Below, piece by piece: positions 2,167-11,545 of a DNA stretch of 27,204 bases; within the stretch, counting starts at the first letter, position 1; every line of letters starts with the position of its first letter. Below the pieces are notes generated by a model. The model ran no database searches, was not told the DNA's origin, and was given only the letters and a program-made list of their open reading frames with translations. Position numbers and translations under genes: made by a program. Source of the stretch: a virus; the UHGV virus genome UHGV-0165622. One strand, given 5' to 3'.

Positions 2167-2335
2167 TTTTGGTTCAACTAAATACAACGTCAGTTTTGAA
2201 GCATGGCATGAACTGTTAATGGACTATGCAGAGTTACGTGGTGGCAGTGCTGCTGATGCTGAAGCATGGCGTGATGATTATGAAGCAGGAAAAACTCCGG
2301 TCGAAGCATATTGTGATGAGTGGGGCGATGAATGA
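2159..2335 (+). CDS. Small hypothetical protein (not in ORF track)
   Basis: 58-aa ORF MADFGSTKYNVSFEAWHELL...; start overlaps previous stop and stop overlaps next start, consistent with a coupled early operon. Confidence 0.35.
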   Translation: MADFGSTKYNVSFEAWHELLMDYAELRGGSAADAEAWRDDYEAGKTPVEAYCDEWGDE

Positions 2336-2721
2336 GCGAGATTAATTATCAGGAAGGGCATGAAACGGCAGGGCAGGCAAAACCAGTTGCATGGCGATAT
2401 CGCTACGTGAAAAAAGACGTTACAGACTTTCAGGGGAAGCCGTGGGCTGGTGACTGGAAATATGTACCGACAAAAGAGGATTGTAACGACAGGCCGAACT
2501 ATGAAATTCAGGCCTTATTCATCGGCCCGCCAGTCCCGGTGACATCAGAAGGACTGGTTAAAGCCGTGCGCTTTTATGAACAGGTAAAGCGTGAGAATCC
2601 GCCAGTCGAAACAGGAGCATGGAAGGATGCTGTTGACTGGGTGCTCAGAGAGGCCTGCTGCGCTGCCATTCTGGGTAAGCCGACAATCCACCAGCATCCG
2701 GCAATCAGGTTAGCGAATTAA
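2332..2721 (+). CDS. Ea22-like family protein (short paralogue)
   Basis: 129 aa; N-terminus MSEINYQEGHETAG parallels the Ea22-like gene at 589. Confidence 0.6.
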   Translation: MSEINYQEGHETAGQAKPVAWRYRYVKKDVTDFQGKPWAGDWKYVPTKEDCNDRPNYEIQALFIGPPVPVTSEGLVKAVRFYEQVKRENPPVETGAWKDAVDWVLREACCAAILGKPTIHQHPAIRLAN

Positions 2722-2723
2722 CA

Positions 2724-2846
2724 ATGTGGGTTAAACGACTGGTCAGTCAACTGAAAAAAGCTCAGCCGGACTGCAAATTACCGGAGAAGGCGATGGATTA
2801 CCTGAAACGAAATGGACTGATAAGCGTGGAGGATGTTTTACGATGA
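2724..2846 (+). CDS. Small hypothetical protein (40 aa, not in ORF track)
   Basis: Short ORF MWVKRLVSQLKKAQPDCKLPEKAMDYLKRNGLISVEDVLR directly after the Ea22-like stop. Confidence 0.25.
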   Translation: MWVKRLVSQLKKAQPDCKLPEKAMDYLKRNGLISVEDVLR

Positions 2847-2927
2847 ATATTTAGACTAAAGAGTTTGTAACGCTATGTAAGTGATTTTTTCTGGTTTAGA
2901 TATTTATATGTCCGGCCAAATTGAGGT

Positions 2928-3146
2928 GTGTTTAAATGTTATTGCACATTGATTGTAGGGGGAATAATGAAAAACGCATTGCAGTTTTTGTTTGTTGCGT
3001 TCTGGTTGTTCGCATCATGTATGCCCATCATCTTCACAGCAAGGTATATGGAAAAAATTGATGTTTTGATATTAATGTTTGGACATATAAATGCCCTTTT
3101 TTTAGGGGTGTTCATGGCGGTCATGTGCATTGAATACTGGCGGTAA
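2928..3146 (+). CDS. Small hydrophobic (membrane) protein, AT-rich
   Basis: 72-aa ORF with two predicted hydrophobic helices in an AT-rich stretch; true start may be the internal Met (MKNALQF). Confidence 0.3.
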   Translation: MFKCYCTLIVGGIMKNALQFLFVAFWLFASCMPIIFTARYMEKIDVLILMFGHINALFLGVFMAVMCIEYWR

Positions 3147-3229
3147 ATACAGCGAACGCCATTGGTTTAGTTGGATATTTACTGTGCCGGACAAAAACGG
3201 TTTGCGGGGAAATCTTAGTTAAGTAGAAT

Positions 3230-3408
3230 GACTGCGGGTGCTTGAGGCTATCTGTCTCAGGCATGAACACCAAAAGGCAGATAGAGAAAAGCCCCAGTTA
3301 ACATTACGCGTCCTGCAAGACGCTTAACATTAATCTGAGGCCATATCTATGCGACACATAGAGATTAGCCTCTTACGGACCGAAAGGTCAAGGAGAAGCA
3401 GGCTATGA
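3230..3408 (+). promoter_or_regulatory. hok mRNA leader with mok-like upstream ORF (3349-3408) and probable antisense Sok target region
   Basis: 20-codon upstream ORF whose TGA overlaps the hok ATG (ctATGAag); inverted repeats in the leader (tatctgtctc / gcagatagag) fit hok/sok fold-back regulation. Confidence 0.4.
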
Positions 3409-3560
3409 AGCAGCAAAAGGCGATGTTAATCGCCCTGATCGTCATCTGTTTAACCGTCATAGTGACGGCACTGGTAACGAGGAAAGACCTCTGCGAGGTA
3501 CGAATCCGAACCGGCCAGACGGAGGTCGCTGTCTTCACAGCTTACGAACCTGAGGAGTAA
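3405..3560 (+). CDS. hokD: Hok/Gef family type I toxin (small membrane-depolarising peptide)
   Basis: 51 aa, MKQQKAMLIALIVICLTVIVTALVTRKDLCEVRIRTGQTEVAVFTAYEPEE; matches the Hok/Gef signature and is closest to HokD/RelF and HokC from memory; below the 60-aa cutoff of the ORF track. Confidence 0.85.
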   Translation: MKQQKAMLIALIVICLTVIVTALVTRKDLCEVRIRTGQTEVAVFTAYEPEE

Positions 3561-3628
3561 GAGACCCGGCGGGGGAGTAATCTCCCGCCACCTCTGATGT
3601 GCCAGGCATCCTCAACGCACCCGCACTT

Positions 3629-3650
3629 AACCCGCTTCGGCGGGTTTTTG
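3629..3650 (+). terminator. Rho-independent terminator after hok
   Basis: Hairpin cccgc-ttcg-gcggg followed by a T5 run. Confidence 0.7.
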
Positions 3651-3661
3651 CATTAGTCTGG

Positions 3662-3690
3662 TTGACAAAAATAGAAAAATGCGAAAATAT
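3662..3690 (+). promoter_or_regulatory. Putative sigma70 promoter for the 3726-5460 cassette
   Basis: Perfect -35 TTGACA at 3662-3667, 17-nt spacer, weak -10-like AAATAT; AT-rich context. Confidence 0.3.
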
Positions 3691-3725
3691 GTGGTTTACG
3701 AATTCTAAAAAAAGCGAAACTTGAA

Positions 3726-4376
3726 ATGAATGAAAATCAGTTAGCTCCTTGTTGGGAATTTCAACCTTATCTTGCTGAAAACTATGTTCGCCACTTGTTG
3801 GCGGAGATCGCTAACGTACTTGAGCAGCTGTACTATCATAAGCACGCATTAGACAGCAACTGGTCTGAAGGTGTAAGGGCTTATGATTGGGTCAGAAATC
3901 ATCTTATTCAAAATGAAGATGCAATTCCTGGCCTTGAGATGATTTCCAAGGGGTTGGACTATGTAGTTGCTTTAAATAAAGTTCCGCTACAATTTACCAA
4001 AGATTGCATTAATAACCCCAAAAAGAAACATCGTCTGCGTCGAAATAAAGTAGAGTATGAGCAGCTCTCATTGTTTGGTGATGTTGAGGCTGAGCAAGAT
4101 ATTACATGGCGAGTCATAGCTGAGCCTTTTTTATCCGAAGAGGGCGATGGTGAATTAGAGTCCACACTGCCTCGTTGGGAGGTAGCTCTTGTTGGATTTA
4201 ATACTTATGGTGCTCAGATTAGTATAGTTTCTCATCAATCTACAGCATCGATGCCGCTTATGCCTCTTGATTATAACACACTCCCTGACGAAGCGGAGAT
4301 TAATAAGGTGCCTCTTCGTCGGCGTACGAAGGATAAAGATTTGGATGTGAGCAGTGATGGAACATCAGGTGAATAA
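3726..4376 (+). CDS. Unknown 216-aa protein, upstream partner of the HTH/Zn-peptidase gene (candidate toxin or effector)
   Basis: ORF with no motif I recognise; low-GC codon usage; 3' end overlaps the downstream gene by about 20 nt. Confidence 0.7.
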   Translation: MNENQLAPCWEFQPYLAENYVRHLLAEIANVLEQLYYHKHALDSNWSEGVRAYDWVRNHLIQNEDAIPGLEMISKGLDYVVALNKVPLQFTKDCINNPKKKHRLRRNKVEYEQLSLFGDVEAEQDITWRVIAEPFLSEEGDGELESTLPRWEVALVGFNTYGAQISIVSHQSTASMPLMPLDYNTLPDEAEINKVPLRRRTKDKDLDVSSDGTSGE

Positions 4377-5460
4377 CTTCACTGAGTATCGGGGTGATAA
4401 GCTCAAACTAGCGAGAATGGCTGTTGGGCTTTCTTGTGAAGAGTTAGCCGAAAAAATTGGCAAGACAAAGCAATTCGTTAGCAAACTGGAGAAGGGGTGC
4501 AGGCCATCGGAGCAATGTCTTGAGTTAATATCTTCAGCGCTTATGATTAAGTCCAGTTTTCTTTTTACTGAACGAAAATACGCTCTGGAAAGTGATGTCT
4601 GCCATTTTCGGAGTAAGAAGTCCAGGACTCAAACGCTGACTAATAGTGTATTGGCCAGGGCTGAGATTCTTAATATTATAATTTCTGCTGTTGAAGGTGA
4701 AATCGAATTTCCTGACGTTAACATACCGGAGCACCCAGGGGCTGAATTACTTACTCCGAATGATATTGAGCGAGTGGCAGAAGATTGTCGCCGTGCCTGG
4801 AATTTAGGTCTTGGCCCTATATCATCAATGGTTAAATTGGCGGAGAGTTTAGGGGTAATCGTTGCGCATGTTACGGGAGTCGATGATCGTGTTGATGCTT
4901 TTACTGTTCACAATAACAGGCCTGTTATCATCAGGAACAATGTTAAAAAAAGCATATGTAGATTTCGCTCTGATTTAGGTCATGAATTAGGGCATTTAGT
5001 AATGCATGAGGGCATAACGACAGGTGATAAACTTACGGAATCACAAGCCGATCACTTTTCGAGCGCCTTATTAGTTCCCAGGTTATCTTTCATTAAAGAA
5101 TTTCCACGAATACGAGGTAAGCAATTCGACTGGAATGCTCTGGTTGAATTTAAACTTAGATGGAAAATCAGCCTTAAAATGTGTATTTATCGAGCCAGCG
5201 CATTAGGCTTATTGACCCAGGAACAGGCAAGAACTGGCTATATGCATCTTAATTCCAGAGGGTATACGAGAGTTGAACCTGGTGATGAACTTTTGCGCCC
5301 TGAAGAACCCGGCATGCTGGCCGAGGCGATTGAAATGCTGGATGATGCAACCTGGCTAAGAATTCTTATGAAAACTGGCTTGAGCCAAGATTTAATTCGT
5401 GAGTTGTTCTCCATCAACAGACCTATTACAAATCCAAGAAATATTTTCCAGATTGTTTGA
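4354..5460 (+). CDS. HTH_XRE plus ImmA/IrrE-family (COG2856, M78-like) zinc metallopeptidase fusion protein
   Basis: N-terminal XRE helix-turn-helix (LSCEELAEKIGKTKQFVSKLEKGCRPS); HEXXH zinc motif HELGH at about 4979-4993 with downstream Glu; 368 aa; GTG/ATG start overlapping the upstream gene. Confidence 0.85.
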   Translation: MMEHQVNNFTEYRGDKLKLARMAVGLSCEELAEKIGKTKQFVSKLEKGCRPSEQCLELISSALMIKSSFLFTERKYALESDVCHFRSKKSRTQTLTNSVLARAEILNIIISAVEGEIEFPDVNIPEHPGAELLTPNDIERVAEDCRRAWNLGLGPISSMVKLAESLGVIVAHVTGVDDRVDAFTVHNNRPVIIRNNVKKSICRFRSDLGHELGHLVMHEGITTGDKLTESQADHFSSALLVPRLSFIKEFPRIRGKQFDWNALVEFKLRWKISLKMCIYRASALGLLTQEQARTGYMHLNSRGYTRVEPGDELLRPEEPGMLAEAIEMLDDATWLRILMKTGLSQDLIRELFSINRPITNPRNIFQIV

Positions 5461-5464
5461 GTAT

Positions 5465-5486
5465 ACCCGCTTCGGCGGGTTTTTTG
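5465..5486 (+). terminator. Rho-independent terminator after the cassette
   Basis: Same hairpin as at 3629-3650 (acccgcttcggcggg) followed by a T6 run. Confidence 0.7.
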
Positions 5487-8618: not shown

Positions 8619-8987
8619 AGGCTTTTTTATTTGTGGTAAATGGGCGGCTGGTGGGTGTGGTGGTTGTTGCTTTCCCGTTGCTGAAAAAGAAAACGCCAGA
8701 CTGTTAGCCGGGTATCAGTTATCTGGAGAAATTTTTAAATACCTCACAATTCAGGCGGTTGACTGTTGTCTGGTTTGCGGGGAGTTTGTTAAAAGAAACT
8801 GGCATGGTGAATCCCCCTGTGCGGAGGGGCAATCAGCGAGTAGGTATATGGGATAATCGCGGATTCAGGTGCTGGTACTGAATTCACCGGGAGGCACCCG
8901 GCACCATGCAATGGCACATAGCGCCACTCTCCAGCCCCTCTCCGGAGGGGCTGTTTATATTGATTTTGTCAGATGTGAGTAAACTCC

Positions 8988-9323
8988 TTATGGACTTTGT
9001 TGTTTTAGTCCATAAGGACATATTTGCAGAGTGCAACGGTTATTAAAGCATTCATTCAATACGTTATCTGTATTTGTAGGACATTCCTGGCTGTTTTTGA
9101 TTAAATTCCAGAATGTTTTATTGAATGGTACTACGTTGTAAATGGTTAAAGGTAGCACTTTGTTATTGAGCATGATACCTGTGTGAGTCAGTGTAAATAT
9201 ACTTTCAGGAGGTAAGAAAGCATCCGATTGATACCAGATTATTAATTTTATTTTACTCCATATGACTGAAAAAGATATTCCGCATGATGGCTGGATAACT
9301 GTATCAATCACAATCCACTTCAT
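8988..9323 (-). CDS. Hypothetical Cys-containing protein in an AT-rich island, opposite strand to the late operon
   Basis: 111-aa ORF; good Shine-Dalgarno (AAGGAAA) upstream of the ATG on the minus strand; AT-rich composition unlike flanking phage genes; an 11-bp perfect inverted repeat (ccttatggact/agtccataagg) lies at its 3' end. Confidence 0.5.
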
Positions 9324-9568
9324 TTAGTTTCCTTGTTTATGTCTTGCTGGTGATGTTCTGAAAAGTATAAATGATATTTTTGAATGTAAACCATAGAGCA
9401 GAATTATTTTTCTGATGTTGTTTATTGTTTATTTAAATGCAGGGTGGTTTATATCTCGTCTTGTAGTTTATCCATGCATATCTGCTTGATGATGAGGTTT
9501 TTATTTAAGGTATGGTTTTGTGTTTTTTCTGTATTACATGTCAGGTATTTTAAAGAATTATTTTTCAG

Positions 9569-11545
9569 ATGGTGGAAAGAACCATGGCATTTAAACACTA
9601 TGATGTTGTCAGGGCGGCATCGCCGTCAGACCTTGCGAAACGACTGACACAAAAACTGAAGGAGGGGTGGCAGCCATTTGGCAGTCCGGTGGCCATCACG
9701 CCTTATACCCTGATGCAGGCCATTGCGGCGGAAGGTGATGTCACCACACCTGTGGTGGTGAAGCCGTCGGATGGAGAAGGCGCAGTTATCAGCACCACCA
9801 GCAACCCGGAGTATTACTTTGTTGTTGCCCTGGCCGGGCAGTCAAACGGTATGGCGTATGGTGAAGGGCTTCCGCTGCCGGAGACATATGACCGTCCGGA
9901 CCCGCGTATTAAACAGCTGGCGCGTCGCAGCACTGTCACGCCGGGTGGTGCGTCCTGTAACTACAATGACATTATTCCTGCGGACCACTGCCTGCATGAT
10001 GTTCAGGATTTGAGTAAGTTTTCACACCCGAAAGCCAGCGCAGCTCAGTATGGATGCGTGGGGCAGGGATTACATATCGCGAAGAAATTGTTGCCGTTTA
10101 TTCCGGCGAATGCCGGTATTCTTCTGGTTCCGTGCTGCCGTGGTGGTTCTGCATTTTTGGCGGGCGATGAAGGTACCTTCAGCGAATCCACCGGCGCAAG
10201 CGAGACCTCGGCACGCTGGGGTGTTGATAAGCCACTGTACAAGGACCTGCTTACCCGTACTCAGGCCGCACTGAAGGCCAACCCTAAAAATATTCTGCTT
10301 GCAGTGGTCTGGATGCAGGGCGAGTTTGATTTGAAACAGGGTGCATACGCCACTCAGCCGGGGCTGTTTGATTCCATGGTGGAAAAATATCGTTCTGACC
10401 TGTCGGAATTCGGAGGTCAGTGTCTCGGGGGCTCTCCGTCATCGGTTCCCTGGATTTGTGGCGACACGACCTACTACTGGAAGCAGACTTATTCTTCGCA
10501 ATACGATGCGGTGTATGGTGCATACAAGACGAAATCCGCAAAAAAAATCTTCTTTGTGCCGTTTATGACGGATGAAAACGGGCGAAATGTGGGTACCAAC
10601 GAGCCGTCAGAAGATCCGGATGTTGCGGATATTGGGTATTACGGAGCCGGTGGTCGAACGGACGCCAAAACCTGGACGACGGCCGACCGTAAAACGCATT
10701 TTGGATCATGGGCACGTCGTGGGATTATTTCCGACCGTCTGGCAACGGCGATTCTTGTGCATGCCGGGAGAAACGCTGAATTCATTACCGGAAAACAGCC
10801 TGATACGGTGAAGCCCACCGGACCTTCCGGTGAAGGTACGGAGAGAGAGCCGGAAGCCCCGGTCAGTAACCGAACCCTGATGAGTCTGCTGGCGTCCGGC
10901 GAAGACCTGGCATCACAGGGCTGGCGCTATTATCACAAACCGGCGAGCGGAGACAATGTTAACAAAAACATTGCTGAAGCGGTGGTCAGTGATGCGGGGG
11001 CTACGGGAGGTAAGGCCCTGCAACTGAATAAACCGGAAAACCACATCTGGTTTCTGGAGCATGATGCAGCCGGACAGGGAGTGGAGTTACTGAAGAAGGG
11101 GGGACGTGTGAGCGTACGGTTTAAGTTGCCGGGTTCACTGGTGCCGAATCAGTTTGCCCTGGGCATTTACTGGCAGTTGTCGTCCCTGCCGGAGGGAGTG
11201 ACGCTGGCAGAGGAAGGCAACGACATGCTGATGTCCTTCTTCCTGCAGACGGATGCGACGAACCTGAACGCGATGCACCACAAGAAGCCGAATGCGAAGC
11301 TGGATACGTTCGGGGTCTTTGATAACGGATGGCACACACTGGCTTTTGAGTTTGCCGGAAACAACAGCATTCAGGTGACGCCGGTACTGGATGAGAAACG
11401 GGGGACGCCGTTCACACTGGTGAAATCTCCGGCATCAGGGGCGGCGGACAAACTGCAACTGACAGGCATATCAAAGGCGGCGACATATACGCTGCTGATT
11501 GACAGTGTGAAGGTGGAAGTGAACAACGCGGACATCGCGGCATGA
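9569..11545 (+). CDS. nanS-p: Prophage sialate O-acetylesterase NanS-p-type protein (N-terminal DUF1737, SGNH/GQSN esterase core)
   Basis: 658 aa; N-terminus MAFKHYDVVRAASPSDLAKRL; esterase motif ALAGQSNGMAYGEG; sits where Stx phages carry the homologous gene between stx and the lysis cassette. Confidence 0.8.
   Translation: MVERTMAFKHYDVVRAASPSDLAKRLTQKLKEGWQPFGSPVAITPYTLMQAIAAEGDVTTPVVVKPSDGEGAVISTTSNPEYYFVVALAGQSNGMAYGEGLPLPETYDRPDPRIKQLARRSTVTPGGASCNYNDIIPADHCLHDVQDLSKFSHPKASAAQYGCVGQGLHIAKKLLPFIPANAGILLVPCCRGGSAFLAGDEGTFSESTGASETSARWGVDKPLYKDLLTRTQAALKANPKNILLAVVWMQGEFDLKQGAYATQPGLFDSMVEKYRSDLSEFGGQCLGGSPSSVPWICGDTTYYWKQTYSSQYDAVYGAYKTKSAKKIFFVPFMTDENGRNVGTNEPSEDPDVADIGYYGAGGRTDAKTWTTADRKTHFGSWARRGIISDRLATAILVHAGRNAEFITGKQPDTVKPTGPSGEGTEREPEAPVSNRTLMSLLASGEDLASQGWRYYHKPASGDNVNKNIAEAVVSDAGATGGKALQLNKPENHIWFLEHDAAGQGVELLKKGGRVSVRFKLPGSLVPNQFALGIYWQLSSLPEGVTLAEEGNDMLMSFFLQTDATNLNAMHHKKPNAKLDTFGVFDNGWHTLAFEFAGNNSIQVTPVLDEKRGTPFTLVKSPASGAADKLQLTGISKAATYTLLIDSVKVEVNNADIAA

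Follow-up and report, generated by a model that had tools for sequence, protein, structure and literature searches.

The analysed DNA, hereafter the window, is a 27,204-nucleotide (nt) stretch of a lambdoid E. coli prophage, UHGV virus genome UHGV-0165622, and all coordinates below refer to its whole length. Comparison with profile libraries indicated that the gene at 3726–4376 and the gene that follows it almost certainly encode the toxin RmrT and the antitoxin RmrA, respectively, of RosmerTA, a two-gene anti-phage system (Millman et al. 2022). RmrT carries the pentapeptide QLSLF, a candidate motif for binding the beta sliding clamp (DnaN), and our confidence is evenly divided as to whether RmrT is a non-enzymatic clamp poison that acts through this motif. 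The features of the pair are as follows, with residue numbers of RmrA counted from the GTG start.

3726–4376, + strand: rmrT, RosmerTA toxin-family protein of 216 amino acids (aa) with an ATG start, identified as an open reading frame (ORF) with PADLOC and PHROG matches.
4062–4076, + strand: QLSLF, residues 113–117 of RmrT, candidate beta-sliding-clamp-binding motif, recognised from the literature consensus and from family conservation.
4357–5460, + strand: rmrA, antitoxin-family protein, 367 aa from the ATG that is the RefSeq start, or 368 aa if translation starts at the GTG at 4354.
About 4402–4542, + strand: XRE-type helix-turn-helix (HTH) of RmrA, residues ~17–63 (Pfam HTH_3, E = 5e-07).
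About 4882–5199, + strand: M78 Zn-peptidase of RmrA, residues ~177–282 (Pfam Peptidase_M78, E = 6e-11).
4981–4995, + strand: intact HExxH zinc-binding/catalytic motif of RmrA (HELGH), residues 209–213.

The 216-aa protein had no matches in Pfam-A and NCBIfam at a threshold of E ≤ 1, and no membrane helix was predicted in it; a membrane toxin was considered and rejected on account of the peak 19-residue Kyte–Doolittle hydropathy of 0.84. Full-length profile matches were obtained with the PADLOC RmrT model PDLC03929 (E = 4.6e-25, positions 5–195 of the 198 in the profile covered) and with PHROG 5786 (phrog_5786, unknown function; E = 8e-85). Because of these matches in two profile libraries, together with homologues in several bacterial groups, the ORF at 3726–4376 is judged to be real and correctly delimited and not a chance ORF. 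The RefSeq entry for the identical gene, WP_001004959.1, is named only 'hypothetical protein', and the accessions of the window proteins are mentioned nowhere in the searched literature. An earlier, sequence-only reading of this DNA had delimited the same 216-aa ORF, in agreement with the ORF list, RefSeq and both profile libraries, and had taken its product for the effector of a toxin–antitoxin (TA)-like defence pair, an assignment borne out by the PADLOC RmrT and RmrA classes. It had suggested that this may be a new effector fold; the kind of system is already catalogued, RosmerTA having been known since 2022 and a clamp-targeting Rosmer toxin since 2025, and the toxin family is already modelled in databases (PADLOC model for PDLC03929). 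The same reading had seen no recognisable signature in the protein, which is correct for Pfam and NCBIfam domains and for membrane segments but overlooked QLSLF, the most informative feature of RmrT.

The product of rmrA corresponds to WP_000401168.1 in RefSeq, where it is called 'helix-turn-helix domain-containing protein' and its start is placed at the ATG. It matched the PADLOC model PDLC03943 (E = 6e-105, positions 2–342 of 370 covered) and phrog_2439, and its match to the NCBIfam spr1629-family antitoxin (E = 1.5e-45) was under that model's cutoff. The HTH and peptidase matches and the HELGH motif listed above confirmed the partner gene as the HTH/Zn-peptidase regulator it had been taken for. 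The pair therefore shows what defines RosmerTA, that is, an HTH and M78 antitoxin with an intact HExxH and an adjacent, co-oriented small gene matching an RmrT profile. The results also showed that rmrT and rmrA overlap by 20–23 nt, the start of rmrA lying in another frame over the last 6–7 codons of rmrT, so that translational coupling is plausible; of the earlier claim of coupling, the overlap stands and the coupling itself keeps this plausible rank. The C-terminal tail of RmrT, which had been described as acidic, does extend over the start of the peptidase gene but is of mixed charge (residues 175–216; nine D/E versus six K/R, including an RRR-K-K run). Within the tail, residues ~187–200 (nt ~4284–4325) contain a conserved [LIV]-x4-[VLI]-x2-[RK] pattern, here EINKVPLRRR, which in the AlphaFold model built from the deeper alignment (see below) has a predicted local distance difference test score (pLDDT) of ~84–86 yet no secondary structure. 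It is possible that RmrA or ClpX recognises this segment, as a docking site or as a degradation signal.

Deletion of the peptidase gene of the verified RosmerTA proved unattainable, 'possibly due to toxicity', and its partner was described as a 'toxin of unknown function' (Millman et al. 2022). RmrA has been characterised as a hub antitoxin that pairs with many different RmrT toxins by Ernits et al. (2023), who also write of a fold shared among Rosmer toxins, and transposon sequencing (Tn-seq) in three Pectobacteriaceae species showed that rmrA is essential. Among Rosmer toxins, a target is known for RipA alone, the toxin of the Rosmer-family TA system RipAB (Spr1630/Spr1629) of Streptococcus pneumoniae; it targets the hydrophobic pocket of DnaN and is antagonised by RipB (PMC12795458). 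By analogy with these and other Rosmer systems, RmrT of the window would be toxic and RmrA would neutralise it. Phage protection has been demonstrated for Rosmer pairs other than this one, by analogy with which the window cassette may be defensive. The roles might instead be reversed or shared, the HTH-peptidase being the harmful partner and the 216-aa protein restraining or targeting it, for example as a clamp-bound replication sensor. Such an arrangement has a precedent in PD-lambda-2 in E. coli, where the Xre-peptidase fusion alone is toxic and the upstream small protein rescues, and according to NetFlax it is uncertain, at the edges of the network around the ImmA/Rosmer node, which partner is the toxin and which the antitoxin. 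It is at odds, however, with the failure to transform an rmrA deletion of the verified RosmerTA, with the essentiality of rmrA in Tn-seq, with the antagonism of RipA by RipB and with the relief of toxicity in E. coli E101 by a point mutation in the domain-less protein encoded upstream. We regard a reversal or sharing of roles as very improbable.

The bacterial clamp-binding consensus is QL[S/D]LF, or more broadly QxxLF, and its critical positions are 1, 4 and 5. In PolC the motif is QLSLF itself, which also serves in experiments as the 'full consensus' and has submicromolar affinity for the E. coli clamp, and a hexapeptide form (QLxLx[LF]) also exists, as in the tight-binding E. coli peptide QLSLPL. 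In a six-frame translation of the window QL[SD]LF occurred once, at residues 113–117 of RmrT, where it is preceded by a basic run (PKKKHRLRRNK) and followed by an acidic linker (GDVEAEQD). Conservation of the motif was scored in a family alignment of 62 sequences with ~16–28% identity to the window protein (around 20%) and no invariant column. The scored region was the loop between a conserved Glu (E110, 92%) and a conserved Trp-Arg (W128/R129), the relaxed motif was defined as Q[LMFIVY]x[LMIF][FLMIY] or its 6-residue variant, and shuffled loops served as the control. The result showed that the relaxed motif was present in the loop of 48 of the 62 sequences (shuffled loops, mean 4.0, maximum 12) and the strict motif in 30 of 62 (shuffled loops, mean 0.5, maximum 5), and that the relaxed motif matched only seven times in the remaining ~11,500 residues of the alignment. 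As these counts come from homologues, they measure conservation and not independent occurrence. When the 48 sequences were anchored on the motif, the consensus was Q (48/48), L (28), S (25), L (40) and F (22, with F one position later in another 12), followed by acidic residues. Pentapeptide and hexapeptide forms alternate among the homologues (QLSLF, QMTLF, QFSLF, QLSLL, QLSLDL, QLNLAF, QLSLPL), with Pro inside some copies, which suits a linear clamp-binding peptide but not an amphipathic helix that is packed. Depending on the homologue, 12 to 19 residues separate the motif from the next strand, with insertions and deletions directly after the motif. In the searched literature the RipA study alone combines Rosmer with the sliding clamp.

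The structure of RmrT was predicted with AlphaFold from two alignments. With 13 close homologues the pLDDT was 62 and residues 96–123 were below 50; with the 62-sequence alignment the pLDDT was 86 and the predicted template modelling score 0.76. The first half of this deep model consists of helices 18–37 and 45–62, strands 70–74, 80–83 and 86–92 and short helices 101–104 and 108–115, and the second half of strands 127–135, 150–158 and 164–171 and an extended C-terminal tail. Foldseek of the RmrT model against the viral structures of BFVD returned no match at E ≤ 0.001, and a sequence-profile search of the PDB with RmrT yielded nothing usable. The AlphaFold model bears a weak resemblance to restriction-endonuclease folds. 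The catalytic residues of PD-(D/E)xK enzymes are not conserved, as D78 before strand 2 is variable and strand 3 has R/Q89; the RmrT family alignment contains no conserved Lys, and its conserved polar residues are D43, R51, R/Q89, E110, Q113, R129 and E133. Because neither the D...(D/E)xK positions nor a Lys are conserved, the core of RmrT is probably a nuclease-like scaffold that is not catalytic, and an active PD-(D/E)xK nuclease was downgraded as a candidate for the same lack of conserved catalytic positions. This bears on a further alternative, a clamp-tethered nuclease whose restriction-endonuclease-like core would cut DNA and whose QLSLF would recruit it to clamps at replication forks; the weak fold resemblance speaks for it and the missing catalytic positions against it, and we consider it improbable.

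Several observations weigh against RmrT being a clamp poison. What links RmrT to the clamp is a motif that is short and linear, and hydrophobic patterns of the type L-x-L-F may have a structural role. The deep model puts the motif at the end of the predicted helix 108–115 and not in a clearly disordered region, the block of residues 111–120 having a mean pLDDT of 73 (versus below 50 around the motif in the shallow model). The relaxed motif is missing in 14 of the 62 homologues, though mostly through near-variants such as QGSLF and QQLAF. An experimental record for the RmrT family PDLC03929 was not found in the searched literature. Similarity to the verified RmrT is not significant and none to RipA is detectable in sequence, hhalign of the RmrT family having given a probability of 0.3% both with the single RipA sequence and with an alignment of 10 RipA sequences, so RmrT–RipA homology was rejected; because significant homology is lacking, the mechanism could be carried over between RmrT families by analogy only. 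Finally, one or more Rosmer toxins act differently, the toxin of Gordonia phage Kita depolarising membranes (PMC10440598).

Alternatively, RmrT might be a Rosmer toxin with another target, in which QLSLF has a structural role or is the place where RmrA or ClpX binds or cuts. The moderate-to-good confidence with which the deep AlphaFold model shows residues 108–115 as a helix, a nearly invariant Glu at position −3 (E110) that is foreign to known clamp motifs, and the diversity of Rosmer toxins, at least one of them a membrane toxin, together with the lack of RipA homology, are all in its favour. On the other hand, the family consensus is the exact clamp consensus, down to the Gln in first and the Ser in third place, the alternation of penta- and hexapeptides and the Pro variants fit a packed helix poorly, and RmrT has no transmembrane segment. 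A Belnapia homologue that has a UvrD helicase as its neighbour instead of RmrA moreover keeps the motif as QLSLAL, which argues against a mere RmrA-docking site. Another target is in our view unlikely, though it deserves to be taken seriously.

If RmrT is a clamp poison, the system might work as follows. The sequence shows a self-contained, mobile rmrT–rmrA cassette, located at the hokD terminator, that brings along a terminator and a conserved promoter region of its own. As in other Rosmer systems, the HTH of RmrA would repress the promoter and RmrA would keep RmrT harmless, probably with the host ClpXP. Were phage infection, for example, to upset this balance, free RmrT would insert its exposed QLSLF into the hydrophobic cleft of DnaN and there compete with Pol III and the other clients of the clamp. 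The host's replication would then stall, as would that of phages needing the host clamp, resulting in growth arrest or abortive infection. The body of RmrT would serve as a catalytically dead, restriction-endonuclease-like scaffold that shows the motif on a variable loop.

The distribution of the cassette was examined in bacterial and viral sequences. The rmrT gene was found in 237 of 5426 complete E. coli genomes (~4%), with at least 99% identity in 224 records, and the E. coli carriers of the exact cassette include O55:H7 and clinical extraintestinal pathogenic E. coli isolates. A scan of IMG/VR made with the close-homologue alignment showed that 53 viral contigs encode a close RmrT relative and that in all 53 an RmrA gene lies immediately 3′ of it. 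Judged from their sequences, RmrT diverges faster than RmrA across these 53 loci, the identities of RmrT and RmrA to the window pair being, for example, 85% versus 92%, 63% versus 73% and 50% versus 63%. The hokD flank is kept only in E. coli-type loci and the more divergent loci lie in other contexts, implying that the cassette moved between prophage contexts. A word-indexed search found 21 close RmrT relatives, all in Enterobacterales. When 1.84 billion representatives were searched with a profile, 69 proteins matched at E ≤ 1e-3; almost all of them are 190–230 aa long, and every one is named 'hypothetical protein'. The homologues come from Enterobacterales, Aeromonas, Vibrio, Photobacterium, Pseudomonas, the alphaproteobacterium Belnapia and metagenomes, and all four distant members that were scanned with PADLOC matched PDLC03929.

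Six distant loci were inspected for the partner gene. Four have an overlapping or closely adjacent HTH and M78 gene (342–376 aa) next to the toxin gene, one has separate HTH and M78 genes next and one, in Belnapia, has a UvrD-type helicase gene, so that an RmrA-type partner, fused or split, is present in five of the six. Most of the six lie in prophage contexts with ERF, RecT/YqaJ, integrase or CI-like repressor genes. The split antitoxin, an HTH protein of 152 aa and an M78 peptidase of 223 aa, belongs to a metagenomic homologue (P0043, locus 2287–4036). On the Belnapia rosea contig FMXZ01000034.1 the toxin homologue (P0086, locus 2501–3202) is followed by a 690-aa UvrD-type helicase (3225–5297), and there is no M78 gene within 2.5 kb. 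This toxin scaffold may thus have a UvrD-type helicase as another possible partner.

The prophage setting of the cassette is marked by sok, hokD and a DUF968 protein, by RusA and Q downstream, and by STnc100. The features of this setting are as follows.

3236–3407, + strand: sok RNA (Rfam RF01794, 106.7 bits).
3405–3560, + strand: hokD, a 51-aa ORF.
3629–3650, + strand: left border of the cassette, the intrinsic terminator hairpin of hokD, AACCCGCTTCGGCGGGTT, with a T-run, found by a terminator scan.
3659–3719, + strand: candidate promoter/operator, proposed from TTGACA at 3662–3667, repeats and conservation.
5465–5486, + strand: right border of the cassette, the second copy of the terminator hairpin, ACCCGCTTCGGCGGGT, with a T-run, the cassette's own terminator.
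8773–8962, + strand: STnc100 small RNA (Rfam RF02076, 132 bits), downstream of the Q antiterminator gene.

The hok/sok type I TA locus lies directly 5′ of the Rosmer cassette, which places two unrelated toxin systems back to back. Further downstream, a 658-aa ORF (9569–11545, + strand) follows an AT-rich stretch (~9000–9600; GC content 0.31–0.33). The borders of the cassette were defined by comparison with the cassette-free phage mEp460, which has both flanks without the two rmr genes. Alignment showed that mEp460 is identical to the window until ...GGGTTTTTG and then diverges; the identity, which ends at ...ACCCGCTTCGGCGGGTTTTTG, picks up at the second hairpin (5465–5486). The cassette, of ~1.8 kb, is located precisely at the hokD terminator and is bracketed by two copies of the hairpin ACCCGCTTCGGCGGGTTTTT, of which mEp460 has a single copy, and the duplicated sequence of ~21 nt, CCCGCTTCGGCGGG, has exact copies at 3631 and 5466. 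The duplicated hairpin, set against the single copy in mEp460, suggests that the cassette arrived by recombination at the hokD terminator or captured that terminator.

Upstream of rmrT, ~70 nt are strongly conserved even where the cassette proteins reach only 50–63% identity. This region contains a perfect −35 hexamer (TTGACA, 3662–3667), weak −10 candidates only (AAATAT at 3685–3690 or TGcGAAAAT at 3680–3688) and 28-nt imperfect direct repeats at 3659–3686 (TGGTTGACAAAAATAGAAAAATGCGAAA) and 3692–3719 (TGGTTTACGAATTCTAAAAAAAGCGAAA), which have a spacing of 33 nt and overlap the −35 hexamer. A consensus promoter scan called none upstream of rmrT because the −10 element is weak. With its repeats and its perfect, conserved TTGACA, 3659–3719 is a candidate for an autoregulated promoter with RmrA operators.

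Among known systems, the verified RosmerTA of E. coli OLC-716 resembles the window pair in being a toxin-first operon with an XRE-HTH and M78 antitoxin and a domain-less toxin of ~200–240 aa. The two toxins belong to different RmrT families, PDLC03935 in OLC-716 and PDLC03929 in the window (the variants WP_001004959.1 and WP_032253520.1 fall in the window family and WP_000286846.1 in the family of Millman et al.), and BLASTP detected no similarity between the window RmrT and the verified RmrT. The PDLC03935 family has a motif of its own, QLKLDL, QLNLDL or QMDLDL in enteric members and NLDLF or NYDMF in members from Vibrio, Photobacterium and Shewanella, in a loop directly before a W-containing, hydrophobic 'DLWFLLY' segment. 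Alignment of PDLC03929 with PDLC03935 by hhalign was not significant (E = 0.056); its 120 columns were collinear, with the motifs and the Trp segments in register. Both the conserved canonical clamp-binding motif in PDLC03929 and the motif resembling it in the verified family, PDLC03935, appear to be newly noticed here.

RipAB, for which the locus was taken from a Streptococcus mitis genome and located via a primer published with the RipA paper, is like the window pair in gene order, antitoxin type (RipB belongs to RmrA class PDLC03945), toxin size and the lack of a toxin domain, and the DnaN pocket targeted by RipA is the site that QLSLF of the window RmrT would bind. It differs in that RipA belongs to the RmrT family PDLC03931 and in that RipAB is chromosomal and tied to competence, whereas the window pair is prophage-borne. 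The RipA paper names no motif (PMC12795458). RipA lacks a canonical internal motif and has only an N-terminal x-x-[DE]-[LI]-F; in its family, including the S. mitis orthologue (locus 3874–4605), this takes the form QDLF, TDLF or REIF, like the C-terminal half of the clamp motif, and it may be the clamp-binding determinant of RipA. An internal QFPLV in S. mitis RipA was rejected as a clamp motif, as it is not conserved in the RipA family.

Other relatives differ more widely. The RosmerTA of Gordonia phage Kita (RmrT D5) is phage-encoded with an ImmA-type antitoxin, as is the window pair, but its membrane-depolarising toxin has a predicted membrane-localised C-terminal region (PMC10440598), which the window RmrT, with its maximal hydropathy of 0.84, does not. 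PD-lambda-2 (Vassallo et al. 2022) and ImmR/ImmA of ICEBs1 likewise place an Xre-HTH and an ImmA/IrrE M78 peptidase beside a small partner. PD-lambda-2, however, consists of three genes with a HigB-like first gene and its peptidase fusion is the toxic part, unlike the arrangement proposed here, and ImmA of ICEBs1 is an anti-repressor protease and no antitoxin. A precedent for the proposed mechanism is SocAB of Caulobacter crescentus, in which the toxin SocB occupies the beta clamp and blocks replication elongation, and SocA is a ClpXP adaptor through which SocB is degraded. SocB is thus a proteinaceous clamp toxin held in check by ClpXP, as proposed for Rosmer, whereas SocA is an adaptor-type antitoxin and RmrA an HTH-peptidase; according to the RipA authors, SocB shows no similarity to RipA (PMC12795458).

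A dependence on Clp proteins recurs among these systems. The ripA gene (spr1630) renders clpX essential in S. pneumoniae (PMC12795458), clpX is essential only in RosmerTA-carrying strains of Pectobacteriaceae, and a prophage TA pair with a domain-less toxin (WP_001179380.1) renders clpP essential in E. coli E101 (Rousset 2020), the authors relating the pair to a putative TA module of Vibrio mimicus. Clamp poisoning would explain the essentiality of ClpX and ClpP in Rosmer strains, in parallel to SocAB.

RosmerTA is among the more widespread of the recently described defence systems, and its published toxins diverge between a membrane pore (phage Kita) and the DnaN clamp (RipA). In RefSeq this cassette, carried by ~4% of complete E. 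coli genomes, is labelled only 'hypothetical protein' and 'helix-turn-helix domain-containing protein'. The conserved clamp motif gives the uncharacterised RmrT family a directly testable mechanism, a case that gains weight from the similar motif of the verified family. Three Rosmer toxin families now point at the clamp, one by experiment (RipA) and two by a conserved motif. We tentatively suggest, as a possibility that we would not yet call probable, that PDLC03929, PDLC03935 and perhaps PDLC03931 share one design, a dead nuclease-like scaffold displaying a clamp-binding peptide on a variable loop, and that RosmerTA is generally a replisome-poisoning abortive-infection system under the control of a peptidase antitoxin and ClpXP. 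If so, the RmrT of the window, with its perfect QLSLF, would be the clearest E. coli example of that design.

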